Numbered from the stretch's first letter, positions 19,756 to 36,029 are shown. The stretch: 64,000 nt of DNA from Anaerolineae bacterium (GCA_041862415.1 JBGVTF010000248.1:3690-67689); one strand, 5' to 3'. Notes: generated by a model from the letters alone, not told the origin. A program made the numbers and translations.

Positions 19756-20958
19756 ATGAAACGAGTTAATTCCCTGACTACAGCGATTCTTCAGCGAGTC
19801 ATGTCGAAAGCTGGTTTGGCGGTTGTGGCCATCCTGGCGGTCCTGGCCCTGGTTATCTTTGGTCTGGCGAGGGGCCTTCAGCTATCGGATATGTCGTCGC
19901 TCTCATCTACCCCTCGGAGCACGGCTGCCGTCCGTGCGACACCTACAGCAACGTGGACATCTACGCCCACCCGCACACCGACTGCTACTCCATCGCCATC
20001 TCCGACGCCTACTTCTACTCCTACTCCCACTCCCACCCTTGACCTGACAAGCTGCACCATCCTGGGTTGTGGTTATGGTCCGGCCGATCCGGTTCCCACG
20101 GCCGCCGTTGGCCCTGCTCCCTATATCCCAGAGATTCCCCCCGCCCGGCGGGTGTGCCAGACCTGTCATGGGGGCGAACCGGTGGACAGCTCTCAGTTCC
20201 TCAGCCTGACCGATGTGGACGGAGCGACGATGCAGCAATTGCGGGATGCTGCCTGGTCGCAGCGGGCCTATCAGATTGCACCGGGTGTCGCCTATTTTGT
20301 CTACGACAGCGTCCACCACGTCGTCGTTGATCTACAAGAGCCGGGGATCGTCCTGCAAAACATCGTCCCACAGCGCGGCGAGAGAGGCACGTTGTTCACC
20401 CCCTCCTGCTGTGTGGCTCCCGATGCTTTAGTGATCACCGACGCCGACTATCACGGGCTGGACGGGTCAAACAAGGCCGACGGTCGGGAGTATTTCTTCC
20501 ACCAGGGACGGGCGGCGCTGTTCGTGCGCGGTGGCCGGTACGACATCGGAGTGATTCGCACCCACGAGGAGTACGAGCCAGTTACCACCTCGTGGGGAGG
20601 CGGGCCGATTTTCATCTGGGACGGGGAGTACAGTTTTAACCCCTTTGACGAGTGGTTCCATCCCGATATCCTGGAGTATTACCGCACCAGCCCCTGGGCC
20701 AAGCTGACGGCATCGGTGTCGGAGGACCGCAAGTACCTGGTGCTGTCCGCTTCCTATGGCCTGAAGCTGAAGGAGCACGCTGGAAACATCATCGCACTGG
20801 GCCGGCTGTGGGGCATCAAAATAGACCGGGCTGTGCGCTTTGATGGTGCCGAGAGTGCTTACCTGGGGTTGCGCATCGGACCTCACTTTGTCAGTGCGCT
20901 CGACATGCCGGAACCAAAGATCGTTAACTGCTTGGTGATACGGCGGCGGGGGGACTAA
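19756..20958 (+). CDS. Membrane-anchored protein with Pro/Thr linker, possibly a phosphodiester glycosidase-like (DUF2233) C-terminal domain
   Basis: A TM helix and PT linker are followed by a C-terminal region containing GGPIFIWDGEY and AVRFDGAESAYLGL, which is reminiscent of DUF2233. The domain assignment is from memory only. Confidence 0.4.
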   Translation: MKRVNSLTTAILQRVMSKAGLAVVAILAVLALVIFGLARGLQLSDMSSLSSTPRSTAAVRATPTATWTSTPTRTPTATPSPSPTPTSTPTPTPTLDLTSCTILGCGYGPADPVPTAAVGPAPYIPEIPPARRVCQTCHGGEPVDSSQFLSLTDVDGATMQQLRDAAWSQRAYQIAPGVAYFVYDSVHHVVVDLQEPGIVLQNIVPQRGERGTLFTPSCCVAPDALVITDADYHGLDGSNKADGREYFFHQGRAALFVRGGRYDIGVIRTHEEYEPVTTSWGGGPIFIWDGEYSFNPFDEWFHPDILEYYRTSPWAKLTASVSEDRKYLVLSASYGLKLKEHAGNIIALGRLWGIKIDRAVRFDGAESAYLGLRIGPHFVSALDMPEPKIVNCLVIRRRGD

Positions 20959-21006
20959 GCATCGCAGCCGGTAGCCCATGTGAGAGGTGAACGCATTAGG
21001 CATAGA

Positions 21007-21046
21007 AGGCCGACCTTTTCCGCAGGTTAGGAGGAGGTCGGCTTTT
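21007..21046 (+). terminator. Possible terminator after 19756..20958
   Basis: Stem GCCGACC/GGTCGGC (21009-21015 / 21036-21042) is followed by TTTT. The 20-nt loop is large, so confidence is low. Confidence 0.35.
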
Positions 21047-21069
21047 GGTGTCTTTGGATGAACCTTCAG

Positions 21070-21098
21070 TTGACAAGTGGGGATAATTATGCTATAGT
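21070..21098 (+). promoter_or_regulatory. Consensus promoter heading the ArsR cluster, embedded in AT-rich candidate operator DNA
   Basis: TTGACA (21070-21075), a 17-nt spacer, then TATAGT (21093-21098). The adjacent AT-rich ataattatgctatagttatattcgattattctaataag is atypical for this GC-rich genome. Confidence 0.7.
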
Positions 21099-21141
21099 TA
21101 TATTCGATTATTCTAATAAGGTTGCGAAGGGACGGTGGGAC

Positions 21142-21474
21142 ATGGAAACTCGTGCTTACAAGTGGCAGGCCAGAATGGCCAAAGCGCTGGCCCACCCCAC
21201 GCGCATCGCCATCCTGGAGATATTGCGTCGCGGGGAGATATGCGTCTGCGAGATGAGCCCCGAGTTGGGGGCCAGCCAGGCCAATGTCTCCCAGCACCTG
21301 GCTGTCCTGCGCGACAGCCACCTGGTGGCCGCGCAGCGCGAGGGCGCGCGGATGGTGTACCGTGTGACCGACGAGCGGGTGTTCCGAGTGCTGGACCTGA
21401 TGGGCTCCATCGCTCACAACCAGTTAGATGCGGCTCGCCAGGACCTTGCTGCCCTGGAAAGCGTTGCCGCTTGA
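21142..21474 (+). CDS. arsR: ArsR/SmtB-family metalloregulator with CVC motif
   Basis: LAHPTRIAILEILRRGEICVCEMSPELGASQANVSQHLAVLRDSHLV is a wHTH with the ELCVCDL-like type-1 As(III)/Sb(III) site. ATG 21142 is chosen over the longer track ORF. Confidence 0.88.
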   Translation: METRAYKWQARMAKALAHPTRIAILEILRRGEICVCEMSPELGASQANVSQHLAVLRDSHLVAAQREGARMVYRVTDERVFRVLDLMGSIAHNQLDAARQDLAALESVAA

Positions 21475-21483
21475 TAAATTAGC

Positions 21484-21551
21484 CATCAGCTATCAGCAAT
21501 CAGTCGTCAGCGATTAGACTGGTGCTGAAAGCTGACTGCTGATAGCTGAAT
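21484..21551. repeat. Inverted ATCAGC-type repeat (hairpin) after arsR
   Basis: atcagctatcagc (21485-) pairs with gctgatagctga (21538-). It belongs to the same motif family as 10533-10628. Confidence 0.6.
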
Positions 21552-21716
21552 GATTACTATTCGAGTAAACTTTCAACTGGAGGCAACCCAACAATGTCCA
21601 TTGCAGAATGGTTATTCCTGTTGTTCCAGTCAGGCTGGGTGAGCCTGCTGAACTAGTGGCCGCCCACGTGCTGTTGTGTCTGGTGCTGACCATCGCCGAT
21701 TGAAAAGGAGATTCAG

Positions 21717-21908
21717 GTGACTGAAGAGAAACAATGTAGTTGTATGAGGAACCCGTTTGCTGCTCTGCCGCCAGAAATGCAGCCCAAGCCCCAGAAGAAA
21801 AGTTCGCTGCGCAAAACGACCTGTCCTGGCTGTGGCCGCGAGTATTGGACTAATCGAAGCACTGACCTCTGTTTTGACTGCGAAAAGAAAGGCGTGAAAA
21901 CGCCGTAG
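21717..21908 (+). CDS. Small Cys-rich zinc-ribbon protein (63 aa)
   Basis: GTG start follows AAAGGAG. Contains CSC near the N-terminus and CPGCGREYWTNRSTDLCFDC. Confidence 0.55.
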   Translation: MTEEKQCSCMRNPFAALPPEMQPKPQKKSSLRKTTCPGCGREYWTNRSTDLCFDCEKKGVKTP

Positions 21909-21936
21909 TGCATCATGGCCGAGAGGGGAAGAAAGT

Positions 21937-23343
21937 TTGTCTGGCTCTTATGATCTTGTAATCCTGGGCGCAGGACCGGGCGGTTATGTGGCCGCGCTGC
22001 AGGCCGCCCAGCTCGATGCGCGCGTGGCTCTCGTCGAGAAAGATCGCGTAGGTGGGACGTGCCTGAACATCGGCTGCATCCCAACCAAGGCGCTGACGAC
22101 CTCTATGGATCTGTTCCTCAAGGCACGCCAGGCCAGCGAGTTCGGCGTGTCCATCCCGGACGCCCGACTTGACCTGCCGGCGCTGATGGTCTACAAACAG
22201 GCCGCTGTCAACAGGCTGGTGAACGGTGTGGAAGAACTGCTGAAGGAGCGCAAGGTCACGCTGGTGCGGGGTGAAGGTCACCTTGTCCGCCCGGACACGC
22301 TGCGCGTCACAGACGCTGCGGGGACTGCCGTAGAGATTTCAGCCCGGCACGTGGTCCTTGCGCCCGGTTCCGTCACGGCCCGACCGCCCATCCCTGGCCT
22401 GGATTTGCCAGGGGTGATGACCAGCACGGAGGCATTGGACATCACCGATGTCCCGGCACACCTGATCGTCATCGGTGGGGGCGTGATCGGGCTGGAATTT
22501 GCCTGCATTTACGAGGCGCTGGGCAGCCAGGTGACCGTCCTTGAGATGATGCCCACGCTGTTGCCCGGGGGGACAGATGAGGCGCTGGCCAAACGGCTGG
22601 CACTCCTCCTGCGGCGGCGTGGGCTGGCCATCCACACGGGCGCAACGGTGCAGGCTGTTGAACCGGCCGAAAATGGGTTGTGCGTTTCCTTTGACAAGGC
22701 CAAAGGTGAAGACTCTGTCGAAGGCGAGCGCGTCCTGGTGGCGATGGGCCGCTGGCCCAATACCGGTGACCTCGGGCTGGCCGAACTCGGCGTGAGAATG
22801 AATGGCCGCGCCATCGCTGTAGACGAGTACTTGAAGACAAACCTCCCCAATGTATGGGCCATCGGCGATGCGGTCGGTGGGATGATGTTGGCGCACAAGG
22901 CGATGGTTGATGGCCGTGTGGTGGCCGAGAACGTGACCGGTGGCCAGCGCGCGGTGGACTATCGCTCGGTGCCCAACGTAATCTTCGCCCGCCCCGAAGT
23001 CGCCAGTGTCGGCCTGACCGAAGCCCAAGCTCGCGCCCAGGGAGCGGACGTAAAAGTCACCAAGTTCCCGTTTTCGGCCAACCCGCGAGCCCAGACTCTG
23101 GGCGAGGCCGAAGGGCTGGTCAAACTGGTGTGTGAGGCCGGCAGCGGGCGCCTGCTGGGCGTCCACCTGATGGGGCCGCACGCCACCGACCTGATCGCTG
23201 AAGGCGCGCTGGCGGTGCAGGTGGGCGCTACGGCAGATGACCTGGCCTGGACCACGCACGCCCACCCGACCCTGCCAGAAGCTGTGCTGGAAGCCGCCCT
23301 CGGCTTCCGCGGCGCAATGATTCATTTTCACTCTCAGAGATAA
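21937..23343 (+). CDS. lpd: Dihydrolipoyl dehydrogenase (E3-type pyridine nucleotide-disulfide oxidoreductase)
   Basis: Contains the FAD motif GAGPGGY, the redox disulfide GGTCLNIGCIPTK and the C-terminal HAHPTLPEA His-Glu dyad. There is no MerA-type C-terminal CC. Confidence 0.92.
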   Translation: MSGSYDLVILGAGPGGYVAALQAAQLDARVALVEKDRVGGTCLNIGCIPTKALTTSMDLFLKARQASEFGVSIPDARLDLPALMVYKQAAVNRLVNGVEELLKERKVTLVRGEGHLVRPDTLRVTDAAGTAVEISARHVVLAPGSVTARPPIPGLDLPGVMTSTEALDITDVPAHLIVIGGGVIGLEFACIYEALGSQVTVLEMMPTLLPGGTDEALAKRLALLLRRRGLAIHTGATVQAVEPAENGLCVSFDKAKGEDSVEGERVLVAMGRWPNTGDLGLAELGVRMNGRAIAVDEYLKTNLPNVWAIGDAVGGMMLAHKAMVDGRVVAENVTGGQRAVDYRSVPNVIFARPEVASVGLTEAQARAQGADVKVTKFPFSANPRAQTLGEAEGLVKLVCEAGSGRLLGVHLMGPHATDLIAEGALAVQVGATADDLAWTTHAHPTLPEAVLEAALGFRGAMIHFHSQR

Positions 23344-23353
23344 GGAGACGATC

Positions 23354-23803
23354 ATGCCTGAGTTTCTTGAACTTACTGTAGACAAATTCACTTTCAGGAC
23401 CGCTACCGACCGGTACTACAACAGCGAAGGAGTGTGGGCGCTGGCCGAAAGCAACCGCGTTCGGATCGGCCTTTCGGACTTTTTGCAGCAAAGGAGCGGC
23501 GACGTAGCCTTCGCCGAGGTCAAGCCGGAAGGAACGGTGCTGGCTTTCGGTGACGAGGTGGCGGTGATCGAGACAATAAAAGCTGACGTTAGCCTGCCCT
23601 CACCGGTGGCCGGCAGGGTGGCCGAAGTTAACCCGGCCATGGATATGACGCCGGAGGCAATCAACCAGGACCCGTACGGCGAGGGCTGGCTGGCCGTGAT
23701 CGAGGCCAAGGATTGGGAATCCGACCGCGCCCGCCTGCTCGACCCGCAGGGCTATTTTGCCCTGGTGCAGGAACAGGCCGAGGAGGAGATGAAGAAGCTA
23801 TGA
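23354..23803 (+). CDS. gcvH: Glycine-cleavage H-like lipoyl carrier protein
   Basis: AAGGAG RBS. The lipoyl-lysine context VAVIETIKADVSLPSPVAGRV and the motif DPYGEGWL are present. No gcvT or gcvP lies nearby. Confidence 0.85.
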   Translation: MPEFLELTVDKFTFRTATDRYYNSEGVWALAESNRVRIGLSDFLQQRSGDVAFAEVKPEGTVLAFGDEVAVIETIKADVSLPSPVAGRVAEVNPAMDMTPEAINQDPYGEGWLAVIEAKDWESDRARLLDPQGYFALVQEQAEEEMKKL

Positions 23804-24222
23804 ATGATCGTAGACGAAAAGTCGTGATCGTGCCGTGCAGCGGCATCGGAAAAACCTACGGCACCGTGAGCCGCGAGGCGGCCTACGAGGTGACCGAGGA
23901 CATGCGCCCTGCCGACACGCAACTGGTGGCACTTTCCCTCCTGGTGTTGGGCGACGAGGAGGCGCGTGCGGCGGTGGCCGGGAACCCGGCGGTGACGATT
24001 GACGGCTGCAAGCTGGCCTGCGCGACCAAGATGGTGGAAGAGAGCGGCGGGACGGTGGCACAGGATTTGGCCGTGCTCGACGCTTACCGCCGCCATCGCC
24101 AGTTCAAGCCGCAGGGCATTGCCGAACTCAACGAGGGCGGGCAGAAACTGGCCCACGCGCTGGCGGAAGAAGTCGCCGCCGTCGTGGACAACCTTTCCGA
24201 AAATGGAGGAAAAGATGCCTGA
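23800..24222 (+). CDS. DGC-domain (putative zinc-binding) protein
   Basis: The start overlaps the gcvH stop (ATGA). Contains VVIVPCSGIGKTYG and TIDGCKLACA, the motif that names the DGC domain. Confidence 0.75.
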   Translation: MNDRRRKVVIVPCSGIGKTYGTVSREAAYEVTEDMRPADTQLVALSLLVLGDEEARAAVAGNPAVTIDGCKLACATKMVEESGGTVAQDLAVLDAYRRHRQFKPQGIAELNEGGQKLAHALAEEVAAVVDNLSENGGKDA

Positions 24223-24958
24223 TCTACCCAAGAAGAAAGTGGGAATCATAGCCTGTTCTGGTGAGGAGTTGCCGGAGGGCACTGTGACGCGAGTGGCCGC
24301 GTTGAAAGTCTTGGAGCAACTGCGCCCCGCCGACACGGTGACCATCTGCCTGCCGCTCTTTCTGGCCGGCGGGGAAGGGGATCGCGCTTTTGCTCGCTTC
24401 TATCCGACCGTTGCCGTGGACGGTTGCGACAAACGGTGCGCCGCCCGTGCTACCGAAATGTATTCCGGCAAACCGGCTGCCAGCGTCGTGGTGAGCGATC
24501 TGGTGGCCGAAAACGGGCTAGGGCGGATCGAGGGCAGCCGCACGTTGAACGAGGCCGGGCGAAAGGCCGCTGAGATCACGGCAGAACGGGTGGCGGGGCT
24601 AGTGGATGTGCTTCTGGGCAAACCGGCGGGCCGGTCCGCCGAGGCAGTCGTCGTGGAACCGGCCGAGGTGTCAGAACCGGAGGAAGAGGAGGCGGTGGTG
24701 GCCACCTGTGAGTGCGGGTCGGGCATCCCGGTGCAGAAGGTGGCCGTGAGCGGGCGGGTGGTCACGTTGATCGCCCTGCCGGCCATCTTCGAGCAGTTCC
24801 ACCAGGCCGGCAAACCGCCCGGTGACGGCACGGCACACGAGTTGCTGGAGGTGGTCAAGATCTACAACCCTATTCCTGGCGAAGAGGAGGAAGCGTACGC
24901 CAAGGCACTGCTGCGTGAATACGAGGCTTTCTACGAGAAACAGGAGGTCCCGGCATGA
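24215..24958 (+). CDS. DGC-domain protein fused to a C-terminal CxC module shared with 36030..36323
   Basis: Contains VGIIACSGEELPEG and VAVDGCDKRCA, then an acidic linker, then ATCECGSGIPVQKVAVSGRVVTLIALPAIFEQF...YAKALLREYEAFY. Confidence 0.75.
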   Translation: MPDLPKKKVGIIACSGEELPEGTVTRVAALKVLEQLRPADTVTICLPLFLAGGEGDRAFARFYPTVAVDGCDKRCAARATEMYSGKPAASVVVSDLVAENGLGRIEGSRTLNEAGRKAAEITAERVAGLVDVLLGKPAGRSAEAVVVEPAEVSEPEEEEAVVATCECGSGIPVQKVAVSGRVVTLIALPAIFEQFHQAGKPPGDGTAHELLEVVKIYNPIPGEEEEAYAKALLREYEAFYEKQEVPA

Positions 24959-25404
24959 GCCGCACCGCAACTTACCACACGACTGTCTCGTGGAAGGGGG
25001 AGCACTGGGGGCACATCGCCATGGGCAACGGTCCGGAGATGGATTTCTCCGCCCCGCCCGACGCCCAGGGCTACCCTGGCGTGCTGACCCCCGAAGACGC
25101 CTTCGTGGCCGCGGTCAACACTTGCATCATGATGATGTTCATCTGGGCCACGGAGCGGTTCAAGCTCAACCTGGTATCGTACACATGCCGTGCTGAGGGC
25201 ACCAAGTTGATCGAACTGGACCGGACGGAGATCTTTACCGACGTCCGCCTCTGGCCGGTTATCCAGGTTGCAGCGGGGGAGGAAGATCCAGCCGTCGTCG
25301 AAGCGCGTGTGCGTCGCGCCCTACAGGGAGCACAAAAGTACAGTCTGGTCGCTAATTCGATCAAGTCGGAGATCGTGGTCGAGCCGACGATCGAAGTGAA
25401 GTGA
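24955..25404 (+). CDS. OsmC/Ohr-family peroxiredoxin-like protein
   Basis: ATGA overlap with the upstream gene. Size and the motifs TPEDAFVAAVNTCIMMMF and AQKYSLVANSIK fit the OsmC fold. Confidence 0.7.
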   Translation: MSRTATYHTTVSWKGEHWGHIAMGNGPEMDFSAPPDAQGYPGVLTPEDAFVAAVNTCIMMMFIWATERFKLNLVSYTCRAEGTKLIELDRTEIFTDVRLWPVIQVAAGEEDPAVVEARVRRALQGAQKYSLVANSIKSEIVVEPTIEVK

Positions 25405-25433
25405 AAATCAATTCTATGATTAGGAGGCGTAAA

Positions 25434-25715
25434 TTGGCACTTAACATCAAGGTTCTGGGACCGGGGTGCATCAATTGTGAACGAGTTTCCCAAGTAGTGG
25501 TAGCTACTCTGGAGGAACTGGAAGCAGAGTTGGGCGATGATTGCCCCGAGGCTACCTTGCAACACGTTACCGACTTTGCTGAATTTGTGAGGTATGGCTT
25601 GATGTTCACGCCGGGACTGGTGGTCAACGAGAAGTTAGTCTGTGCCGGCCGCATCCCCACGCAAGCCGAGGTCCGGCAGTGGCTGACCTCAGCCGTGGCC
25701 GAAATCGAAGCCTGA
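25434..25715 (+). CDS. Thioredoxin_3-type small redox-active disulfide protein
   Basis: TTG 25434 lies 6 nt after AGGAGG, and an in-frame ATG at 25416 lacks an RBS. Contains NIKVLGPGCINCERV (CxxC) and GLMFTPGLVVNEKLVCAGRIP. Confidence 0.8.
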   Translation: MALNIKVLGPGCINCERVSQVVVATLEELEAELGDDCPEATLQHVTDFAEFVRYGLMFTPGLVVNEKLVCAGRIPTQAEVRQWLTSAVAEIEA

Positions 25716-25938
25716 AGGGTACAGGACACCGGGGGCAGCCGGGAAAGCGGGGAGAGCACAGTTGTCTTTGGTCTGTCCTGAGGACGCCATCAGCTTCCCG
25801 CCTAAGGAGCAGATCGTGGCTCTGGTCAAGGAACTGAGGGCGAAATACGTATCTGGATAAACGATGTGCCCCTGCCAGGTAAGCCCAGGGTTGGTAGTGG
25901 GTTCACCTGGTGGGGGCCGTCGCTGTGGGAGGTAAGCT

Positions 25939-26205
25939 ATGGACATCAAGGTGTTGGGGGATGGCTGCTATGGCTGCTTGCAGCTCGAGCTGCTGGTGGG
26001 TCAGGTGCTGGACGAGCTGGGACTCCCGACCTCGCTCCAGCGGGTAAGTGACCGCAAGGAGATGGATCGCTACCTGTTGAGCGAGCCGCCGGGCTTGGTC
26101 ATCAACGGCCAGTTGGTGATCGAGCGACGCCTGCCAACCAAAGAAGAACTGCATCGCTGGATCATGGACGCCCTAAGCTGGGAAGGACGTGTATGGGCGA
26201 CGTGA
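25939..26205 (+). CDS. Second thioredoxin_3-type small redox protein
   Basis: GGGAGG RBS. Contains MDIKVLGDGCYGCLQL (CxxC) and PPGLVINGQLV. Confidence 0.8.
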   Translation: MDIKVLGDGCYGCLQLELLVGQVLDELGLPTSLQRVSDRKEMDRYLLSEPPGLVINGQLVIERRLPTKEELHRWIMDALSWEGRVWAT

Positions 26206-27812
26206 GGAAAACTGCATTGCTGCTGACGCTGCTGTTGATCGGCGGAGGGCTTCTGTTGCCTGTGGCCCGGGCCGAGGAGCCGGTGGTCCGGGCTGTGCTG
26301 TTCTGGTCAAAGACCTGCCCCCACTGTCATGTGGTCATCAACGAGACGCTGCCGCCACTGCAAGCGAAGTATGGAGACCAATTGGAGATCGAGTTGATCC
26401 AGACCTCCGATCCAGCAGGGTATGAACTGTACCGGGCCACTCTGGAGGCGTATGGCGTCTCGCCTGACCGCCAGGGAGTGCCGGCGTTGTTCATCGGTGA
26501 TCACCACCTGATGGGTTCCGTGGAGATTCCCCAAATCCTGCCGGGACTGATCGAGCAATACCTGGCCGCTGGTGGGATGGACTACCCGGCCATTCCAGGG
26601 CTGGGGGCCGGGCCGAAGCTCATCCCCAATCATGCCGCCAACCCCACTCCGCGACCTACTCCGACCATCAAAGCTTGCCACATCTGTGATGAGGAAGAAC
26701 TGTCTTCCACGTCGATGCCAACTGCCGTGGCCGACGACGCACCGGCCATCCACCTGGCCTACTTCTACCAGCCTGGCTGCCGCGAGTGCGACCGGGTGCA
26801 ACTGGACCTGAACTACCTGCAACACCGTTACCCGCAGCTCGTCGTCCACGCCTTTGACGTCAAGGCGGAAGCGGCGCTGGCCGAATGGCTGGGAGAGCGG
26901 GCCGGATTCCCAGAAGAAGAGCGACTGACCGCCCCAGCGGTGTTCGTCAGCGACGAGGGATTGGTAGGCGAGGCGCTACACGCCCGCAGCTTGGAAGAGT
27001 TAATAGCCCGTCACGCCGCTACGGGCGCCGAGGCTGTGTGGGAGGGATGGGAGGCGGCCCGGAGCCAGGCAGCCGAGGGGATCATCGAGCGATTCCGCTC
27101 CTTCGGCCTACTGACGGTTCTAGCCGCCGGGCTGGTGGATGGGCTGAACCCCTGCGCCTTTGCCACTATCGTCTTTTTCATCTCGTACCTGGCCTTTGTG
27201 GGCCGCAAGGGACGGGAGATGCTGGCTGTGGGAGCCGCCTTTGCCCTGGCCGTGTTCCTGACCTATCTAGGCGTGGGGGTGGGGTTGCTCAAGTTCCTGG
27301 CGTCGCTGCCCTTCTTGGATGCCCTGAGCCGTTGGGTGTATGGACTGACGGCGACCCTGTGCCTGTTCCTGGCCCTCGGCAGCCTGCACGACTGGTGGCA
27401 GGCCCGTCGGGGCAAACCCGAGGAGATGCGCCTGAAACTGCCTGCCCACCTGCGACGCTGGATCAACCGGGTCATCCGGGAGGGGGCGGGGCTGCGGGCC
27501 TTCGTGCCGGTGGCCTTTGTCACCGGAGCGGTGATCTCGGTCATCGAGCTGGCCTGCACCGGCCAGGTCTACCTGCCGACCATCCTCTTTGTGTTGGGCG
27601 TGCCGGGTTTGCGGGTGCGGGCCAGGCTGTACTTGCTGCTCTACAACCTGATGTTCGTTCTGCCGCTGGTGGTGGTCTTCGTGCTGGCTTACTTTGGCAC
27701 CACCTCGCAGCAATTGGGCCAGTTCATCAACCGCCGGGCGGCGACGATCAAACTGGCCACGGCCGGGCTGTTCCTCTTGCTGGCCGGGTGGCTGGTGATG
27801 GCGTTGGTGTAA
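26193..27812 (+). CDS. Exported thioredoxin-like domains fused to a CcdA/DsbD-type transmembrane electron-transfer domain
   Basis: Signal peptide, then WSKTCPHCHVV and FYQPGCRECDRV CxxC motifs, then a 6-TM region with GLNPCAFATIVFFISYL and ELACTGQVYLP. Confidence 0.78.
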   Translation: MGDVRKTALLLTLLLIGGGLLLPVARAEEPVVRAVLFWSKTCPHCHVVINETLPPLQAKYGDQLEIELIQTSDPAGYELYRATLEAYGVSPDRQGVPALFIGDHHLMGSVEIPQILPGLIEQYLAAGGMDYPAIPGLGAGPKLIPNHAANPTPRPTPTIKACHICDEEELSSTSMPTAVADDAPAIHLAYFYQPGCRECDRVQLDLNYLQHRYPQLVVHAFDVKAEAALAEWLGERAGFPEEERLTAPAVFVSDEGLVGEALHARSLEELIARHAATGAEAVWEGWEAARSQAAEGIIERFRSFGLLTVLAAGLVDGLNPCAFATIVFFISYLAFVGRKGREMLAVGAAFALAVFLTYLGVGVGLLKFLASLPFLDALSRWVYGLTATLCLFLALGSLHDWWQARRGKPEEMRLKLPAHLRRWINRVIREGAGLRAFVPVAFVTGAVISVIELACTGQVYLPTILFVLGVPGLRVRARLYLLLYNLMFVLPLVVVFVLAYFGTTSQQLGQFINRRAATIKLATAGLFLLLAGWLVMALV

Positions 27813-27842
27813 GGAATGGGTAGTTGGAGAGGAGTATAACCT

Positions 27843-28376
27843 ATGAGTGTGCTGATTGAAAACTATGACCTGGAAGTGACCACGCCCCCTTGCGATCCGG
27901 GGGTTGAGCGGTTCAATGCCATTGCCCGCTTGGTCGTGGACATTAGCGAGGTACTGCCTTACTTGAATGCCACCTGGAAGGGGGCCATCTATGACCACGG
28001 TGCGCACATTCTGGTCTGGCGCATGGGTGGCCGGGCGGTGACGGTGCAGCCCTACGAAATCGCCGTCAGCCGCCTGGAAGACCGCGAGGAGGCGACCCAG
28101 GTCATCGAGCGGCTGGTGGGCATGATCAACCGCACCTGGGAACGGCGGGACGAGATCGAGCCTAGTACCGCCAGGCGAGAGCGACTGCGAGCGCTGGACG
28201 TGTACAAACTACTGCCCGGCACCAACTGCAAAGCCTGCGGCCAGCCGACTTGTTTCATCTTCGCCAACAAGCTGGCCGCCGGTGAGGTGGAGGTCGAACA
28301 ATGTACCCCGCTCTTCACCGATACCTATCGGGAGAAGCGGGAGCAACTCCTGGCTTTGATCCAGGCAACAGTCTAA
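27843..28376 (+). CDS. Fe-S cluster-binding protein (PF04060-like C-terminal CX2CX4CX16C) with an N-terminal domain of unknown function
   Basis: LPGTNCKACGQPTCFIFANKLAAGEVEVEQCTPL is the Fe-S motif seen at RnfB/CdhC N-termini. The N-terminal ~100 aa are paralogous to 29993..30307. Confidence 0.7.
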   Translation: MSVLIENYDLEVTTPPCDPGVERFNAIARLVVDISEVLPYLNATWKGAIYDHGAHILVWRMGGRAVTVQPYEIAVSRLEDREEATQVIERLVGMINRTWERRDEIEPSTARRERLRALDVYKLLPGTNCKACGQPTCFIFANKLAAGEVEVEQCTPLFTDTYREKREQLLALIQATV

Positions 28377-28388
28377 CGGAGGACTCAC

Positions 28389-28700
28389 ATGAAAGAAGCT
28401 CGGATCGCATCCGGCTGGGCTAGGCAGTACATTCGGGAGCGCGGTGGAATCATCAACATTGCCACCCGTATGACTGTGGTGGACTGATGAACGGCCTACG
28501 AGACCCCATCAGGTCTGATGGGCAAGCCTGAAAACGAGCAAGATTACATCCGATTTATGGCGGAAGACATCGAGGTCTACCTGTCTAAAGAGATCTGGGA
28601 AGGGTTGGACCCCAAGGCTACGGAACTGCGGTTTGCCATTCCGGGGTATGGTCGGTTCTACCTGAAGTTCAACCCCGCCCGGTCTCGAGTGGCTGGGTAG
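28389..28700 (+). CDS. Predicted 103-aa selenoprotein with tandem in-frame UGA-UGA (Sec-Sec) at codons 33-34, HesB-like 'CC/Se motif'-type small protein
   Basis: ATG 28389 follows GGAGG (28378-28382) with a 6-nt spacer. The same frame continues through TGA TGA (28485-28490) into track ORF 28518..28700, whose ATG has no RBS. A SECIS-like hairpin lies 14 nt downstream, and a paralogous 3' fragment lies at 41035-41208. Confidence 0.6.
28505..28522 (+). promoter_or_regulatory. Candidate bacterial SECIS hairpin
   Basis: A perfect 7-bp stem CCCAUCA/UGAUGGG carries the apical loop GGUC. CA-GGUC-UG is identical to the apex of the E. coli fdhF SECIS as I recall it. The loop begins 21 nt after the second UGA. 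Confidence 0.5.
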
Positions 28701-28770
28701 CCTTCAAGCGCCCCCAAGGGCGCAGACTATCTCAAGTTTACATCTACTCTACAAAATCTGAGGAGGTCAT

Positions 28771-29904
28771 TTGAAAATGTCACAAACAACAGCGAAAGTT
28801 GAAGTTCTGGACAGGGAAGTCAGTGTCGTCAAGCGGCTGTCGCTGCTGGACCGCTTCCTGCCCCTGTGGATCTTTCTGGCTATGGCCGTGGGGGTAGGAT
28901 TGGGCTACGTCTTCCCCGGCATCGCCACCGCCTTTGATGCCCTGCGCATTGACACGGTGTCGTTGCCCATCGCCATCGGCCTGCTGTGGATGATGTATCC
29001 CGTGCTGGCCGAGGTCAAGTACGAGGAACTGGGCAAAGTGGCCACAGCCTGGAAGATGTTCAGCGTCTCGGCCGTGCTGAACTGGGTCATCGGCCCGGTC
29101 ATTATGTTCATCCTGGCCTGGGCCTTCTTGCCTGATCTGCCCGAGTATCGCACCGGGCTGATCATCGTCGGGCTGGCCCGCTGCATCGCCATGGTGCTGA
29201 TCTGGAACATGCTGGCCGAGGGCGACGCCGAGTACTGCGCGGTGTTGGTGGCCCTCAACTCGGTGTTCCAGATCATCATGTACAGCCCGCTGGCCTATCT
29301 CTATCTGCGGGTGATACCGGGCTGGTTCGGGGCCGACACGGCCGCCGTGGGCGTGACCATGTGGGACATCGCCAAGAGCGTGCTCATCTTCCTGGGCATC
29401 CCGCTGGCGGCAGGTATCATCACTCGCTTCAGCCTGATCCGGCGGCGAGGGCAGGAGTGGTACGAGACCAGGTTCATGCCCAAGCTGGGGCCGACGGCCA
29501 TCATCGGGCTGCTGTTCACCATCATCGTCATGTTCAGCATGAAAGGCGAGGTGATCGTTACCCTGCCGCTGGACGTGCTGCGGATTGCCATCCCGTTGGT
29601 GGTTTACTTCGGGTTGATGTTTGCCGTGGCTTGGGTGGTCGCGTGGCTGTTCCGCTTCCCCTACGCCGACACGGCCACCCAAAGCTTTACGGCGGCCAGC
29701 AACAACTTTGAGCTGGCCATCGCCGTGGCCGTGGGAGCCTTTGGTATCGCTTCGGGGCAGGCGCTGGCCACGGTGGTCGGACCGCTGATCGAGGTGCCGG
29801 TGCTGATCGGGCTGGTGTACGTGGCGTTGTGGGCCAGGCGTTTCTTCTTCAGGCCGGATGGCACGGCGAAGCGAAAGCTGGCGGCCGCTGAGATAGCAAG
29901 CTAG
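28771..29904 (+). CDS. acr3: ACR3-family arsenite/antimonite efflux transporter
   Basis: Begins with LSLLDRFLPLWIFLAMAVGVGLGYVFP and has about 10 TM helices. The start may be TTG 28771 or ATG 28777. Confidence 0.9.
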   Translation: MKMSQTTAKVEVLDREVSVVKRLSLLDRFLPLWIFLAMAVGVGLGYVFPGIATAFDALRIDTVSLPIAIGLLWMMYPVLAEVKYEELGKVATAWKMFSVSAVLNWVIGPVIMFILAWAFLPDLPEYRTGLIIVGLARCIAMVLIWNMLAEGDAEYCAVLVALNSVFQIIMYSPLAYLYLRVIPGWFGADTAAVGVTMWDIAKSVLIFLGIPLAAGIITRFSLIRRRGQEWYETRFMPKLGPTAIIGLLFTIIVMFSMKGEVIVTLPLDVLRIAIPLVVYFGLMFAVAWVVAWLFRFPYADTATQSFTAASNNFELAIAVAVGAFGIASGQALATVVGPLIEVPVLIGLVYVALWARRFFFRPDGTAKRKLAAAEIAS

Positions 29905-29992
29905 TGAGCGCTGCGGTACGGAGGCAGCGCCGCACGCCGCAGGCCCAGCGGGCCAAACTGATGCGGATGGATTTCGGAGGAGTGGGAATGAT

Positions 29993-30307
29993 ATGCTACT
30001 GCATGGCTTCACTGTCACTCATGTCCTGGACTGCCTGGCCGACCCGAGCAAGGACCGGGTCATCGCCGAGCTCTCGGACGACGTGTCGCCAGTGTTTCCC
30101 TATCTCAACGCCGTCGTACCCAACTTGATGTACAATCCCGGTGCCAACTCGGTGACCGTGGAGCGAGAATGGCGCATCCTGACGTTCTACCCGCACGTGG
30201 CGGTGATGGACAAGGTGGATGGTAACGGGCTTCTGAAACTAGAGAGAGGAGATGCGCATGCCAAACAGACCAGGTACGGCAGGCAGCAGCCGCTGTGCCC
30301 GGAGTGA
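29993..30307 (+). CDS. Paralog of the N-terminal domain of 27843..28376, lacking the Fe-S module (possibly a decayed copy)
   Basis: AELSDDVSPVFPYLNAVVPNLMYNPGANSVTVEREWRILTFYPHVAV aligns with ARLVVDISEVLPYLNATWKGAIYDHGAHILVWRMGGRAVTVQPYEIAV. The C-terminus is unrelated. Confidence 0.5.
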   Translation: MLLHGFTVTHVLDCLADPSKDRVIAELSDDVSPVFPYLNAVVPNLMYNPGANSVTVEREWRILTFYPHVAVMDKVDGNGLLKLERGDAHAKQTRYGRQQPLCPE

Positions 30308-30338
30308 AAGAGGCGAAGGTAGCCTCACTCGATAAGGG

Positions 30339-31604
30339 GTGGGGTGCCTCATGGATGAAGCGGTGAAGATGATGGGCCAAATGACTGAACTGGGGCTAGA
30401 GAAGGCACAAGAAGTGCTGGTACAGGAATGCAGTTCCCTGGGGCTGATGGCCTCGCCCGAGGGCTACCCGCACGTCTGGGCGCGGGATAGTGTCATCACA
30501 GGCCTGGGGGCCATCCTGAGTCTAGGACATGAGAACTGCCTGCGCACATCCCTGCAGACTCTGGCCGGACAGCAATCGGAGTTGGGGGCCATCCCCAACA
30601 ACGTCAGCGTGGCTACGGGACGGCTGGACCACACCAACGCCGGTTCGGTGGACTCTAACCTGTGGTACATCGTCGGCCACTACGTCAACCATCGGATGAC
30701 GGGTGACACTGACTTTTTGCGAGCCCACTGGTCGTCACTGGAGCAGGCGCTATTGTGGCTGCGCTACCAGGATTCCAACGGCTGCGGCCTGTTGGAGGTG
30801 CACGAGGCCGCCGACTGGGCCGACCTGTTGGCCAACCGTTTCAACATCCTGTACGACAACGTGCTGTGGTACGCTGCCCTGAGGGCCATGGCGGCAATGG
30901 CCGCCACACTGAGGAAGAACGGGGCGCAGTACGACCAGATGGCATCGGACGTGCGGCACAAGCTGCGCATCGTACTGTGGGTGGGGCCGGAGAGCGCCGA
31001 CGAATGGGGGCCCACCTGCCCGGGTCACATGGAGTGGAAACACACCCTCAGCCAGGTGGACCCGGTGCTGGTCAAACGGCCCTTCTTCCTGCCCTACGTG
31101 GCTTTCCGTGACTACGGTGACTACTGCGACGTGTTGGGCAACCTGCTGGCGGTGTTGTTTGGGGTGGCCAACCCGGCCCAGGAGCGGCGTATCCTGGACT
31201 ACCTGTACCAGGTGGGCATGGCCGAGCCGTATCCGGTGCGGGTACTGCATCCACCCATTTACCCTGGTTCCAAGGACTGGCGGGAATATTACCGCAACAA
31301 CAACCTCAACCTGCCCGACCAGTACCACAACGGCGGCATCTGGCCCTTCGTAGGCGGCTTTTACGTGGCCGTCCTCGTAAAGACGGGGCGGCTGGAAGAG
31401 GCGCGGCGGCAACTGGAGAAGCTGGCCGAGGTCAACCGGCTGGGGATCAACGAGGAGTGGGAGTTCAACGAGTGGTGCCACGGTCGCACCGGTCGGCCGA
31501 TGGGCTATCCCCACCAGGCCTGGTCGGCGGGGATGTACGTCTACGCTCACCGTTGCGTGGCCAAGGGCCAGGTGCCAGTGTTCGGGGATGACATGTGGAG
31601 GTGA
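30339..31604 (+). CDS. GDE_C / GH100-like glycoside hydrolase (neutral invertase or debranching-enzyme-like)
   Basis: Contains GYPHVWARDSVITGLGA, NAGSVDSNLWYIVG, EAADWADLL, NILYDNVLWYAAL and YHNGGIWPFVGGFY. Confidence 0.6.
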   Translation: MGCLMDEAVKMMGQMTELGLEKAQEVLVQECSSLGLMASPEGYPHVWARDSVITGLGAILSLGHENCLRTSLQTLAGQQSELGAIPNNVSVATGRLDHTNAGSVDSNLWYIVGHYVNHRMTGDTDFLRAHWSSLEQALLWLRYQDSNGCGLLEVHEAADWADLLANRFNILYDNVLWYAALRAMAAMAATLRKNGAQYDQMASDVRHKLRIVLWVGPESADEWGPTCPGHMEWKHTLSQVDPVLVKRPFFLPYVAFRDYGDYCDVLGNLLAVLFGVANPAQERRILDYLYQVGMAEPYPVRVLHPPIYPGSKDWREYYRNNNLNLPDQYHNGGIWPFVGGFYVAVLVKTGRLEEARRQLEKLAEVNRLGINEEWEFNEWCHGRTGRPMGYPHQAWSAGMYVYAHRCVAKGQVPVFGDDMWR

Positions 31605-31605
31605 C

Positions 31606-32847
31606 ATGACGGAACTGTATCCCATGCTGAGCGTAGAAGAAGCCCTGGCGCGGGTGCTGGCTGCCTTCCAGCCGTTGCCGCCAGAGCGTGTGCCGGTGTT
31701 GGAGACGCTGGGCCAGGTGCTGGCCGAGGACGTCTATGCGGACATGGACATCCCGCCCCTGACCAACACGGCCATGGACGGCTATGCTGTGCAGGCGGCC
31801 GACACGGCTGGGGCCAGCGCCAAGCGCCCCGTGCGCCTGCGTATCGTCTATGACCTGGCCGCTGGCTACACCACCGATGTGACGGTGACGCCTGGCACGG
31901 CCATCCGCATCATGACCGGCGCGCCCATCCCGCCGGGGGCCGACGCCGTGGTGCGCTTCGAGGACACAGAACAAGACGGGGAATGGGTCACCATTCTCAA
32001 GGGTGTGCCGGTGGGTAAGAACGTGCGCCGGGCCGGCGAAGACGTGAAGAAGGGTGCGCTCATCCTGCCGCGGGGTACGGCGATCCGCCCGCAAGAGGTG
32101 GGCATGCTGGCCGCGCTGGGGCATAAGGAGGCCTGGGTCCACCGCCGGCCGCGGGTAGCCATCCTGGCCACCGGCGACGAGGTGATCGAGGTGGACGCCC
32201 CCTGGCAGCCGGGCAAGATCCGTAATGCCAACAGCTACTCCAACGCCGCCCAGGTATTGCGCTACGGCGGGGTGCCGGTGCTGCTGGGCATCGCCCGCGA
32301 CGACGTGGCGGAACTGACTGCTAAAATTCGGGCCGGGCTGGAGCAGGGGGCCGATCTCTTCCTCACCTCGGGCGGGGTATCGGTCGGCGACTTTGACGTG
32401 GTCAAGACAGTGCTGGCGGCCGAAGGGGAGATGGGCTTCTGGCGGGTGCGGATGAAGCCAGGCAAGCCGCTGGCCTTCGGCCAGATCCGGGGGGTGCCGC
32501 TACTGGGCTTGCCGGGCAACCCCGTATCAGCTATGGTCAGCTTTGAACTGTTCGCCCGCCCGGCCATCCTCAAGATGCTGGGCAAGACCCGGCTGGCAAA
32601 GCCGACGGTGGAGGCCATGCTACTCGATGATATCACGCGCAAGGACGACCGTCGTCACTACCTGCGGGTCATGCTCGAGGACAGGGAAGGAAAGTACTTG
32701 GCCCAGCTGACTGGCGACCAAGGTTCGGGCATTCTGCTCTCGATGGTACGAGCGCAGGGGCTGGCGGTGATCCCCGAAGACGTGGATCACCTGCCCGCCG
32801 GGGCGCGGGTGCAGGTCATGATGCTGGATTGGCCGGAACGTGGATGA
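31606..32847 (+). CDS. moeA: Molybdopterin molybdenumtransferase MoeA
   Basis: Contains SVEEALARVL, TNTAMDGYAV, IMTGAPIPPGADAVV, TSGGVSVGDFD and PGNPVSAMVSF. ATG 31606 is adjacent to GGAGGTGA. Confidence 0.92.
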   Translation: MTELYPMLSVEEALARVLAAFQPLPPERVPVLETLGQVLAEDVYADMDIPPLTNTAMDGYAVQAADTAGASAKRPVRLRIVYDLAAGYTTDVTVTPGTAIRIMTGAPIPPGADAVVRFEDTEQDGEWVTILKGVPVGKNVRRAGEDVKKGALILPRGTAIRPQEVGMLAALGHKEAWVHRRPRVAILATGDEVIEVDAPWQPGKIRNANSYSNAAQVLRYGGVPVLLGIARDDVAELTAKIRAGLEQGADLFLTSGGVSVGDFDVVKTVLAAEGEMGFWRVRMKPGKPLAFGQIRGVPLLGLPGNPVSAMVSFELFARPAILKMLGKTRLAKPTVEAMLLDDITRKDDRRHYLRVMLEDREGKYLAQLTGDQGSGILLSMVRAQGLAVIPEDVDHLPAGARVQVMMLDWPERG

Positions 32848-33148
32848 GATCACCTGCTGTCAGTACGAAGAGTTTGTGAAAGCCCTGGCCGACGAGACCC
32901 GCCAGGACATCCTGGAGTTGTTACAGGATCGGGAGATGAGCGTGGGCGAGATAGCGGCCTGCTTTAGACAGACGCAACCGACCATTTCCCATCATCTGGG
33001 TCTGTTACGCCGCGCGAGGGTGGTGCTGGCCCGGCGGGAAGGCAAGCAGGTATATTATACAGCCAACCGCTGTTGCCTGGACGCCTGCACCCGGCGACTG
33101 GTCGAGCAACTGACCGGAGAAGGGAACGAGCCATGCGAGAAATCATAA
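32840..33148 (+). CDS. ArsR-family regulator with N-terminal CC and C-terminal CCxxxC
   Basis: LADETRQDILELLQDREMSVGEIAACFRQTQPTISHHLGLLRRARVV is a wHTH. Cys pairs occur at ITCCQY and NRCCLDAC. The gene overlaps moeA and xdhC. Confidence 0.85.
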   Translation: MDEITCCQYEEFVKALADETRQDILELLQDREMSVGEIAACFRQTQPTISHHLGLLRRARVVLARREGKQVYYTANRCCLDACTRRLVEQLTGEGNEPCEKS

Positions 33149-33891
33149 CTGCTTTGAATGAAGCCCTTCAGCGCGACGAGCCCGTGGCCCTGGCCACCGT
33201 GGTGGAGGTGCAAGGCGCTTCTCCGGCCCAGGTGGGTTTCAAGCTGCTGGTACGGCCTGACGGCAGCGTCGTGGGCAACCTGGGCGGCGGGGCGCTGGAG
33301 CAGCGGGTACGGGAGGAGGCGGTGACCGCCTTGCGAGAGGGGCGGTCTCGCCTGGTCCACTACACCCTGCGCGAGGAGGGTCCCAACGCGGTGGGAATGC
33401 TGTGCGGCGGCGAGGTCACAGTGTTCGTCGAGGTCTACCGACCGGCTCCCATCCTGCTCATCGTCGGCGGGGGACACATCGGCCAGCCGCTGGCCGAGAT
33501 GGCCCGCATCGTCGGCTTCAACGTCCAAGTGATGGACGTGCGCCCGGAGCGGGCCACGGTGCCCCAACTCGACCCGGCAGCCATCACCCCGCAGACCTAT
33601 GTGGTGCTCATCACCGAGGATCACGTCACTGACGAGCAGGCGCTGCGCCAGGTGCTCGACACACCGGCGGCCTACGTGGGCATGATCGGCAGCCGGCGCA
33701 AGGCGAGCATTGTCTTCGATCACCTGCGGGCTGAGGGAGTGTCCGAGGAGCGGCTGGCTCGCGTCCACGCCCCCATCGGGCTGGACCTGGGTGGACGCTC
33801 GCCGGCCGAGATCGCCCTGGCCATTCTGGCCGAGGTGGTGCAGGTGCGCTATGGCGGGACAGGGACGTCGTGCATGTCGAAGGGGGGATAA
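33133..33891 (+). CDS. XdhC/CoxI-family molybdenum-hydroxylase accessory protein
   Basis: Contains ALATVVEVQGASPAQVGFKLLV..DGSVVGNLGGGALE, a Rossmann-like LLIVGGGHIGQPLA, GMIGSRRK and IHAPIGLDLGGRSPAEIALAILAE. Confidence 0.85.
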   Translation: MREIITALNEALQRDEPVALATVVEVQGASPAQVGFKLLVRPDGSVVGNLGGGALEQRVREEAVTALREGRSRLVHYTLREEGPNAVGMLCGGEVTVFVEVYRPAPILLIVGGGHIGQPLAEMARIVGFNVQVMDVRPERATVPQLDPAAITPQTYVVLITEDHVTDEQALRQVLDTPAAYVGMIGSRRKASIVFDHLRAEGVSEERLARVHAPIGLDLGGRSPAEIALAILAEVVQVRYGGTGTSCMSKGG

Positions 33892-33893
33892 CT

Positions 33894-34082
33894 ATGTGGC
33901 GAAACTATCTGTTTCCCGGCTCGGTAGAGGAAGCACCAGAGATGCTGACCACCTACGACGGCGGGGCTCACCTGATCGCTGGAGGCACCGACCTGATTCT
34001 GGAGCTAGCGGTGGGAGTGCGGCTGGAAAGGCTAGTGGCCACGGCGGAGAGGGTTCTGATGGAGATGAAACGACCTGGATAG
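33894..34082 (+). pseudogene. N-terminal fragment of a CoxM/XdhB-type FAD-binding subunit
   Basis: MWRNYLFPGSVEEAPEMLTTYDGGAHLIAGGTDLILEL matches the start of molybdopterin-dehydrogenase FAD-binding subunits. The ORF ends after 62 aa. Confidence 0.6.
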
Positions 34083-34156
34083 GCAAGCGGTCACTCTGCA
34101 TGTCGTTGGGTAATGGATTTCAGGTGAAGGCAAGGTGCGCGCACGTGGAGGATAAG

Positions 34157-35958: not shown

Positions 35959-36029
35959 ACCGTGTAAGCGCGCCGACCGGCGGTCGGAAAAAGGTTGTAT
36001 AGAGGATAGATTTCGAAGGAGGTGGAACC

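Follow-up and report, generated by a model that had tools for sequence, protein, structure and literature searches.

A four-gene unit encoding a GcvH-like lipoyl carrier, two DGC proteins and an OsmC-like protein recurs in arsenic-associated gene clusters of Anaerolineae and other lineages

Known lipoyl thiol relays include the Lpd-SucB(lipoyl)-AhpD-AhpC chain of Mycobacterium tuberculosis and the lipoyl-dependent Ohr/OsmC peroxidases. Some arsenic-resistance (ars) operons carry a thioredoxin system of their own (arsT/arsX), and ArsD-ArsA form a chaperone pair. In the sHdr-LbpA system, GcvH-like lipoate-binding proteins occur together with DsrE/TusA sulfur transferases under the control of an ArsR-type repressor (PMC6067878, PMC11094781, PMC12423496), and Pseudodesulfovibrio mercurii ND132 has an arsR-arsP-arsE-DGC operon in which the function of the DGC protein was stated to be unknown (bioRxiv 10.1101/2022.10.17.512643). 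Here, we describe a gene cluster in a stretch of 64,000 nucleotides from an Anaerolineae bacterium (GCA_041862415.1, JBGVTF010000248.1:3690-67689; hereafter the window, with positions counted from its first nucleotide), in which an ArsR repressor gene heads a run of genes for, among others, a GcvH-like lipoyl carrier, two DGC-domain proteins (DGC1 and DGC2), an OsmC-like protein and the arsenite exporter ACR3. The order GcvH-DGC1-DGC2-OsmC is kept in approximately 80 uncultured species of several phyla, usually beside arsenic genes, so that the four genes look like an unstudied part of arsenic detoxification. The unit is undescribed in the arsenic literature that we searched, and no description of it was found in the full-text literature available outside paywalls.

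The core consists of four plus-strand genes, encoding the GcvH-like carrier (23354-23803; PF01597, 100.9 bits), the single-domain protein DGC1 (23800-24222; PF08859, 56 bits versus a cut-off of 27), DGC2, in which a DGC domain is followed by a C-terminal domain with a CxC motif (24215-24958; PF08859, 56.1 bits versus 27), and an atypical OsmC-like protein (24955-25404; PF02566, 38.2 bits versus 27.5). An earlier reading of this DNA from its sequence alone (the sequence-only reading) had proposed translational coupling, and the overlaps are plain to see: the reading frames share ATGA between gcvH-like and DGC1 (23800-23803) and between DGC2 and the OsmC-like gene (24955-24958), and 8 nt between DGC1 and DGC2 (24215-24222). 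A further stop/start overlap at 25401-25404 extends the series to trx3a (25401-25715), which encodes Trx3a of the Thioredoxin_3/MTH895-ArsE family (PF13192, 75.7 bits; TIGR00412, 73.8 bits versus 62).

To follow this arrangement across species, we scanned one genome per species with DGC2, which matched 114 genomes and gave 80 loci that were kept. These are contigs of metagenome-assembled genomes (MAGs), many of which share ancestry, and their neighbouring genes were called by tblastn with the window proteins and a limited number of hidden Markov model scans. The four genes are colinear in essentially all 80 loci, at DGC2 identities from 89% down to 42%; GcvH is present in 71 of 71 testable loci, DGC1 in 70 of 71 and OsmC in 74 of 78. 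Carriers belong to the Anaerolineae, Caldilineae, Dehalococcoidia and Limnocylindrales (all Chloroflexota), Aminicenantes, Armatimonadota and a few archaeal and other bins. The sequence-only reading had asked whether a five-gene string beginning with dihydrolipoyl dehydrogenase (Lpd) recurs elsewhere with ArsR and ACR3; it does for the last four genes, but not for Lpd, which is found in only 11 of the 80 loci (directly upstream of GcvH in 9) and is an accessory rather than the driver of a self-contained system.

The residues expected to carry the chemistry are equally well kept. The GcvH-like protein is close to Thermus GcvH (1onl; E = 3e-28) and scores under the gcvH equivalog cut-offs (TIGR00527, 89.6 versus 115.85 bits; NF002270, 105.8 versus 117), and its predicted lipoyl lysine, Lys76 in an ETIK motif, is invariant in 75 sequences. 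In DGC1, Cys13, Cys70 and Cys74 are invariant in 80 sequences, and Arg25 in a 12-sequence alignment; a fourth cysteine is present in Aminicenantes and Armatimonadota and absent in Anaerolineae. DGC2, which is 40% identical to DGC1, has invariant cysteines at positions 14, 45, 71 and 75, and the CxC pair of its C-terminal domain (165/167) is likewise invariant, although most Aminicenantes are missing this domain altogether. The OsmC-like protein keeps Cys57, which lies at the peroxidatic position in a long helix, and Cys78 in all 74 sequences; these are the only cysteines of the window protein.

The surroundings of the core point to arsenic. For the counts that follow, ArsR was scored within 3 kb upstream and the other genes within 5 kb, with at least 45% identity for ACR3. 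An ArsR gene precedes the module in 49 of 67 loci, and 46 of these 49 regulators have a CxC motif. A Thioredoxin_3/ArsE-family protein is nearby in 44 of 49 loci, ACR3 in 23-25 of 49 and an ArsC of the thioredoxin-dependent low-molecular-weight protein tyrosine phosphatase (LMW-PTP) type also in 23-25 of 49, with one or both of the latter two in 30 of 49. ACR3 and ArsC may stand upstream, downstream or on the opposite strand while the order of the core does not change. Other recurrent neighbours are radical SAM/SPASM proteins (23/80), AhpD-type CxxC proteins (11/80), which follow OsmC in some loci, TauE-family exporters (9 loci), DsbD-like proteins, ArsA/ArsD, ArsP and ferredoxin or Fe-S proteins. 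The window itself was said to have no arsC, arsA or arsD; this holds for LMW-PTP arsC, arsA and arsD, and also for arsP, none of which was found in the 64 kb by tblastn, but it does not extend to the relatives, half of which carry a thioredoxin-type ArsC. No gcvT/gcvP and no glutaredoxin-type arsC were seen on inspecting the open reading frames (ORFs) of the window, for which no dedicated search was made, and inspection of the conserved neighbour clusters of the related loci likewise showed nothing like gcvT/gcvP. No copy of DGC2 was found by tblastn among 72,556 plasmids.

More remote variants and fusions connect the DGC proteins with one another as well as with Trx3, the GcvH-like protein and arsenic genes, in ways that are separate from shared ancestry. 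Protein P0124, found on two independent contigs, is a fusion of DGC2 with Thioredoxin_3 (DGC2::Trx3), which backs a direct link between DGC and a thioredoxin-like protein. Around it, in locus L084, the gene order is ArsR / DGC1 / DGC2::Trx3 / two small genes / ferredoxin / GcvH / OsmC / ArsR / Trx3-like / LMW-PTP ArsC-like, so that all parts are present but shuffled. Fusions of two DGC domains occur in P0156, P0256 and P0259, of which P0259 (29% identity) lies between ferredoxin and GcvH with a divergent ArsR, and P0156 is part of a GcvH / DGC::DGC / OsmC / ArsR locus that also has ArsC, a bona fide ArsM and a pair of Trx3 genes nearby. Elsewhere, ArsM comes after a single DGC gene; the ArsM proteins encoded next to DGC genes (loci L089 and L091) match NF008823 with 342-360 bits. 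We left aside an apparent DGC1-DGC2 fusion (P0096, locus L083) from a long-read assembly with possible indels. In locus L082 the module genes appear split in a nanopore-derived contig, probably as an indel artefact, and this was not used as evidence either. A presumed lipoate ligase beside a DGC::DGC fusion (L088) is actually a biotin ligase (TIGR00121, 129 bits) and so gives no support for lipoylation.

The DGC2-like family comprises 553 clusters at E <= 0.001, and 82 at <= 1e-30, among 1.84 billion cluster representatives, which makes it small, and contains thousands of metagenomic proteins. The AlphaFold2 (AF2) model of DGC2 (mean pLDDT 79) shows an alpha/beta domain, a disordered linker and a small domain of a beta-hairpin and a helix; in the alpha/beta domain, the four cysteines line the C-terminal ends of strands 1-3 and the beginning of the helix that follows. 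Searches of the PDB by phmmer, profile and fold gave no relative, the best Foldseek match to the PDB (E = 0.047) being among generic flavodoxin-like folds that we rejected as relatives, and there is no NCBIfam model for DGC1 or DGC2. The cysteine after strand 1 and two more approximately 60 residues further on prompted the idea that DGC is a hidden LMW-PTP-type arsenate reductase; the HHalign probability of 0.09 shows that the two are not homologous. Selenocysteine variants of the cluster cysteines were also sought, and no in-frame stop replaces any of them. Separately, a 97-aa protein of the window (36030-36323) without Pfam or NCBIfam match is 44% identical to DGC2 residues 162-239, with a CC pair in place of CxC, which means that the C-terminal domain of DGC2 can occur on its own.

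How does the module compare with the described systems? With the Lpd-SucB-AhpD-AhpC and Ohr relays it shares a Lpd flavoprotein, a presumably lipoylated carrier and small cysteine proteins that could work as an NADH-driven thiol relay, here read from genes, and as in the Ohr/OsmC relays there is an OsmC-family protein, with AhpD-type CxxC proteins in some related loci. Unlike in the M. tuberculosis chain, the carrier is a dedicated GcvH-like protein instead of an E2 subunit, the adaptors would be two DGC-domain proteins that have no solved or characterised relative, and the whole stands under ArsR in arsenic operons from which Lpd is usually absent; unlike the Ohr/OsmC peroxidases, the OsmC-like protein has no resolving cysteine. 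The sHdr-LbpA system resembles the module in using a GcvH-like lipoyl protein outside glycine cleavage, small cysteine carriers and an ArsR-type regulator, but the module has no genes for Hdr-like proteins, TusA, rhodanese or a dedicated lipoate ligase/LipS, its regulator is of the metalloid type with a CVC motif, and its neighbours are ArsC, ACR3, ArsM, ArsA and ArsP. Like arsT/arsX and ArsD-ArsA, the module genes are ArsR-controlled accessories that may supply a thioredoxin-type ArsC with reductant or pass As(III) on via three-cysteine sites; however, the window contains neither thioredoxin reductase nor ArsD/ArsA, the proposed source of reductant is a lipoyl protein, and the core four proteins are not homologous to ArsT, ArsX, ArsD or ArsC. 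In the P. mercurii operon, a PF08859 (DGC) gene likewise adjoins a PF13192 (ArsE) gene under ArsR, with a single DGC, no GcvH-like or OsmC-like partner and ArsP instead of ACR3.

Expression of the cluster is likely to start from the sigma-70-type promoter TTGACA-17-TATAGT at 21070-21098 (plus strand), which was predicted as near-consensus and indeed matches at 11 of 12 positions, with a TG extension. It is set apart by an intrinsic terminator of the upstream gene (21005-21046, plus strand; a 17-pair stem followed by a T-rich tail). Aligning the region 5' of arsR in the window with that of four related species shows an identical -35 hexamer and a mostly kept -10 hexamer (TATAAT in 3 of the 4 relatives). 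Directly 3' of the -10 hexamer lies ATATTCGA-TTAT-TCTAATAA (21100-21119, plus strand; consensus ATATTCGATTATyCTAATAT), an 8-4-8 imperfect inverted repeat as read by eye, in which columns 21100-21118 are identical in the five species except for one T/C column (21112) while the flanks diverge. Since an automated repeat search with seed 6 found no inverted repeat in the promoter region, the assignment comes from the five-species alignment, and it makes this segment the obvious candidate operator for ArsR. The ArsR/SmtB repressor itself (21142-21474, plus strand; 110 aa; HTH_5, 53.3 bits) carries ICVCE in helix 3, in agreement with the earlier call of a CVC-type ArsR, and matches the model NF033788 with 96 bits versus a cut-off of 55. 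The start of the gene and of the cluster had been put at 21058, which we move to 21142, since an ORF from 21058 would have its promoter inside the gene.

Gene content, synteny, conserved residues, fusions and a promoter with a conserved operator-like element are the direct observations, and together they support a functional unit that appears tied to arsenic operons and built on a lipoyl carrier and cysteine clusters, with its chemistry not fixed. We tentatively read the cluster as an ArsR-repressed arsenic-stress operon in which a lipoyl/cysteine disulfide relay feeds Trx3-dependent arsenic enzymes. As(III) would bind the CVC site of ArsR, which would then leave the operator at 21100-21119. 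The translationally coupled genes would be made in fixed proportions, allowing their proteins to assemble into a complex. The lipoyl arm of the GcvH-like protein would be reduced by the co-encoded Lpd with NADH in the window, and in most other genomes by a housekeeping Lpd or a ferredoxin/Fe-S partner. From the dihydrolipoyl group, reducing equivalents would pass to the cysteine clusters of DGC1 and DGC2 and on to Trx3 and the OsmC-like protein; Trx3 would hold arsenic-damaged dithiols and the arsenic enzymes that cycle through disulfides (thioredoxin-type ArsC, ArsM) in the reduced state, and ACR3 would export the As(III). Such a relay fits with the DGC2::Trx3 fusion, with ArsC, ArsM and AhpD-type proteins as frequent neighbours and with the alternative donors (Lpd in some loci, ferredoxin/Fe-S proteins in others). 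A lipoyl/dithiol relay had been proposed in the sequence-only reading, and the conserved core, the invariant Lys76 and the fusion speak for that part of it, whereas Lpd, the membrane thioredoxin protein, the Fe-S protein and the selenoprotein that it also enlisted turn out to be lineage-specific.

Several points weigh against the relay. Beyond gene content everything in it is inferred, from As(III) induction, lipoylation and complex formation to the way in which electrons flow and what accepts them in the end. A chain of four proteins exceeds what a simple transfer from lipoyl to thioredoxin needs, the OsmC-like protein has no assigned role in the scheme, and Zn, an Fe-S cluster or As(III) would be equally plausible ligands of the clustered DGC cysteines. 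Lpd is absent from 69 of the 80 loci, and neither ACR3 nor ArsC lies within 5 kb in 19 of 49. The same is true of all 8 Lpd-type loci with full flanks, one of which (L054) has ArsA and ArsP at 6-9 kb, so that the combination of Lpd and ACR3 in the window is unusual. CVC motifs are also found in Cd/Pb sensors of the ArsR family. Finally, the loci come from MAGs that are related to each other and do not count as independent samples, and some are nanopore assemblies with frameshifts.

The cysteine clusters could also serve to hold arsenic itself. In a first version of this idea, which we consider possible though on the unlikely side, the dihydrolipoyl group would be a decoy that chelates As(III) or methylarsenite and hands it to the sites of three or four cysteines in DGC1 and DGC2 (with the CxC domain and the Sec-Sec selenoprotein) for export by ACR3 or ArsP, and Lpd and Trx3 would do no more than maintain the thiols in reduced form. 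Dihydrolipoyl groups are tight ligands of trivalent arsenicals, and ArsR, ArsD and ArsA typically have three-sulfur sites; an invariant lipoyl lysine under a CxC ArsR and an Anaerolineae DGC1 with exactly three invariant cysteines agree with this, as does the AF2 model, in which the cysteines cluster along one side of the sheet. DGC genes lie beside ACR3, ArsP and ArsM in unrelated lineages, and proteins with CxC, CC and Sec-Sec motifs accumulate in the island, where the Sec-Sec gene stands directly upstream of ACR3 (in the window and in locus L028). However, about half of the loci have no ACR3 within 5 kb, the DGC1 of other phyla, with its four cysteines, would suit a site for a metal or an Fe-S cluster, none of the proteins is homologous to ArsD, and the DGC2::Trx3 fusion and the AhpD-type and ferredoxin neighbours indicate redox turnover rather than passive binding. 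A second version, which we regard as similarly unlikely, takes the lipoyl group itself as an arsenic-handling cofactor: in a dedicated H-protein induced by arsenic, the dihydrolipoyl arm, like British anti-Lewisite (BAL), would strip As(III) or methylarsenite from the dithiols of the cell and pass it via the cysteine sites of DGC1 and DGC2 (and the Sec-Sec protein) to the efflux pump.

A lipoyl-dependent hydroperoxide reductase, as suggested in the sequence-only reading, would run from NADH via Lpd, lipoyl-GcvH and DGC adaptors to the OsmC-like protein and be induced by the oxidative stress that arsenic causes; we think this improbable. Lipoylated proteins do reduce Ohr, and the cluster combines genes for Lpd, a lipoyl protein and an OsmC-family protein. 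Carriers of the module belong to mostly anaerobic lineages, which counts against a peroxidase. Ohr and OsmC are cysteine-based peroxidases in connection with which lipoylated proteins have been discussed (PMC5384416, PMC5962072), and the OsmC-like protein of the module, with Ta0195 (2onf) and VCA0330 (2d7v) as its nearest structures, retains Cys57 and the glutamate ten residues before it; AhpD-type proteins come after OsmC in some loci. The analogy is nevertheless weak. At the canonical position of the resolving cysteine all 74 sequences have serine (KYSLVANS), where both 2onf and 2d7v have cysteine, and this makes a peroxidase role doubtful. No conserved arginine is evident at the catalytic position in a by-eye alignment to the E. 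coli OsmC sequence, and the peroxiredoxin-named NCBIfam model gives 26 bits versus a cut-off of 166. Peroxide reduction would also leave the two DGC proteins and the link to ArsC, ArsM and ACR3 unexplained.

By analogy with sHdr-LbpA, the module might instead handle sulfane sulfur, sulfite or selenium, with a lipoate-binding protein and DsrE-like carriers under a sulfur-responsive ArsR-type repressor, a proposal to which we give little credence. It would account for the TauE-family exporters, one of which takes ACR3's place in the closest relative, and for the nearby DsbD-like proteins and families that often contain selenocysteine, and DGC may be related to DsrE, as Pfam has it. However, no DsrE/TusD-like structure is among the 50 Foldseek matches listed for DGC2, and there are no hdr genes, TusA or rhodanese among the conserved neighbours. 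With the LbpA-like and GcvH-related models, the GcvH-like protein falls far short of the cut-offs (NF045810, 46.4 bits versus 150; TIGR03077, 52.8 versus 144), the regulator has an adjacent CVC motif and reaches only 57.7 bits with the BigR model (cut-off 155), and ArsC, ACR3, ArsM, ArsA and ArsP dominate the context. That the genes have no common function and are merely co-inherited, with a housekeeping GcvH and DGC proteins as generic zinc proteins, is very improbable: most loci do come from one class, the Anaerolineae, so that neighbourhood counts are inflated by shared ancestry, but the order persists across phyla and at identities as low as 42% amid reshuffled flanks, starts and stops overlap, there are independent fusions and a shuffled variant that retains all parts, and the GcvH-like protein scores below housekeeping cut-offs, with no gcvT/gcvP seen among the conserved neighbour clusters inspected.

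Around the core, the cluster comprises ArsR and 13 further plus-strand genes, ACR3 and the Sec-Sec protein among them. The count of fourteen same-strand genes given earlier is right, but the run does not end at 30307 and continues to approximately 37786; no convincing plus-strand terminator was found inside the cluster. Pfam and NCBIfam matches bear out the identities that had been proposed for Lpd, the GcvH-like, two DGC, OsmC-like, thioredoxin-like, Fe-S and Sec-Sec proteins and ACR3. A spacer of 243 nt separates arsR from the next gene, which encodes a 63-aa cysteine-rich protein (21717-21908; CSC, CPGC and CFDC motifs) without family match and with homologs in 12 of 80 loci. The spacer contains a hairpin (21484-21552; -39.4 kcal/mol, z = -5.2) that has no T tract and is not kept in the closest relative, and an Rfam scan of 20500-31000 gave a chance match of a microRNA model to it and nothing else; it could be an inserted palindromic element or a site of mRNA processing or stability. 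In loci L007 (5881-7404), L014, L015 and L005, a cation-diffusion-facilitator gene lies between arsR and the small cysteine-rich gene, which hints that this regulator lineage may also control a divalent-metal exporter. The window and L002 have no such gene, and a remnant of it in the 243-nt gap was considered and rejected, as tblastn found nothing.

Lpd (21937-23343; TIGR01350, 510.7 bits versus a cut-off of 408.8) has the CxxxxC redox disulfide (GGTCLNIGCIP) and the C-terminal His-Glu pair (HAHPTLPE). Downstream of trx3a follow Trx3b, a second Thioredoxin_3-family protein (25939-26205; PF13192, 52.9 bits; TIGR00412, 57.1 bits, under the cut-off of 62), and a 539-aa membrane thioredoxin protein (26193-27812), present in 4 of 80 loci, with a hydrophobic N-terminal segment, two thioredoxin/glutaredoxin-like domains (CPHC, CREC; Glutaredoxin match 29-32 bits) and a polytopic membrane domain. 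The latter had been assigned to CcdA/DsbD, which we could not confirm: residues 294-539 have no Pfam match, the protein reaches 22.5 bits with the NCBIfam model for ArsG (cut-off 200), BLASTP against a DsbD-like neighbour protein showed no similarity, and only NPC and ACTG motifs, read by eye, point in that direction. The suggested export of reducing power depends on this unconfirmed assignment.

The Fe-S protein (27843-28376; 17/80 loci) combines an N-terminal domain of no named family with a [4Fe-4S] domain of the type found in RnfB and the corrinoid Fe-S protein (CFeSP) (PF04060, 50.1 bits), and matches the N-terminal domain of the corrinoid Fe-S protein large subunit with E = 5e-9. The CC/Se-motif selenoprotein (Sec-Sec; 28389-28700; 8/80 loci; NF041239, 40.9 bits versus a cut-off of 40) has a tandem in-frame UGA UGA at codons 33-34, which is shared by 8 homologs, the most distant at 37% identity, together with protein similarity to either side of it; a hairpin 3' of it (-16.4 kcal/mol, z = -1.2) is not significant on its own as a selenocysteine insertion sequence (SECIS). 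ACR3 follows at 28771-29904 (TIGR00832, 441.6 bits versus a cut-off of 282.8). In the closest relative (L092 = L002), the corresponding position right after the Sec-Sec gene is taken by a TauE-family exporter (14480-15235), suggesting that the terminal exporter of the island is interchangeable. The last gene of the cluster (29993-30307; 104 aa, no family match) was previously taken as a truncated paralog of ACR3; instead, it is paralogous to the Fe-S protein, of which it resembles the N-terminal half (32% identity over residues 17-79), and has no Fe-S domain.

Elsewhere in the window, a second ArsR-headed run on the same strand (32840-37786) follows the cluster and encodes ArsR2 (CC motifs), XdhC, a radical SAM/SPASM protein, a Uxx-star protein and MOT1. 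The radical SAM/SPASM protein has an AbrB-like N-terminus and resembles the tungsten cofactor maturase model TIGR04317 (327 bits, under the cut-off of 380), the Uxx-star protein is glutaredoxin-like and in its Cys form, MOT1 is a molybdate transporter, and MoeA is encoded just upstream (31588-32847). At this position the closest relative has CobW, the same radical SAM protein, a tungsten aldehyde:ferredoxin oxidoreductase and ThiS/MoaD-like genes. A fragment at 41038-41196 corresponds, with 62% identity, to the C-terminal half of the CC/Se selenoprotein and is likely a pseudogene or remnant, because neither an N-terminal part nor a Sec-Sec motif lies upstream. Between 12846 and 14400, a low-GC patch (GC 0.46 versus approximately 0.60; third-codon-position GC 0.34-0.39) with two ORFs that have no assigned function may be foreign DNA.

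The ars operons are among the best-studied bacterial stress systems, yet the four-gene unit is missing from the arsenic literature searched, and it is found in lineages that are common to sediments, aquifers and sludge. If the module supplies reductant or hands arsenic on, this would explain how many anaerobes run thioredoxin-type ArsC and ArsM, or protect their dithiols, under arsenic. Both the DGC domain family and an OsmC subfamily would thereby gain their first function, and H-protein-like lipoyl carriers a third non-canonical job after sulfur oxidation and the lipoyl relay. Should the lipoyl cofactor itself be the chelator, the module would be the first cofactor-based metalloid chaperone pathway, again with a first function for the DGC family.

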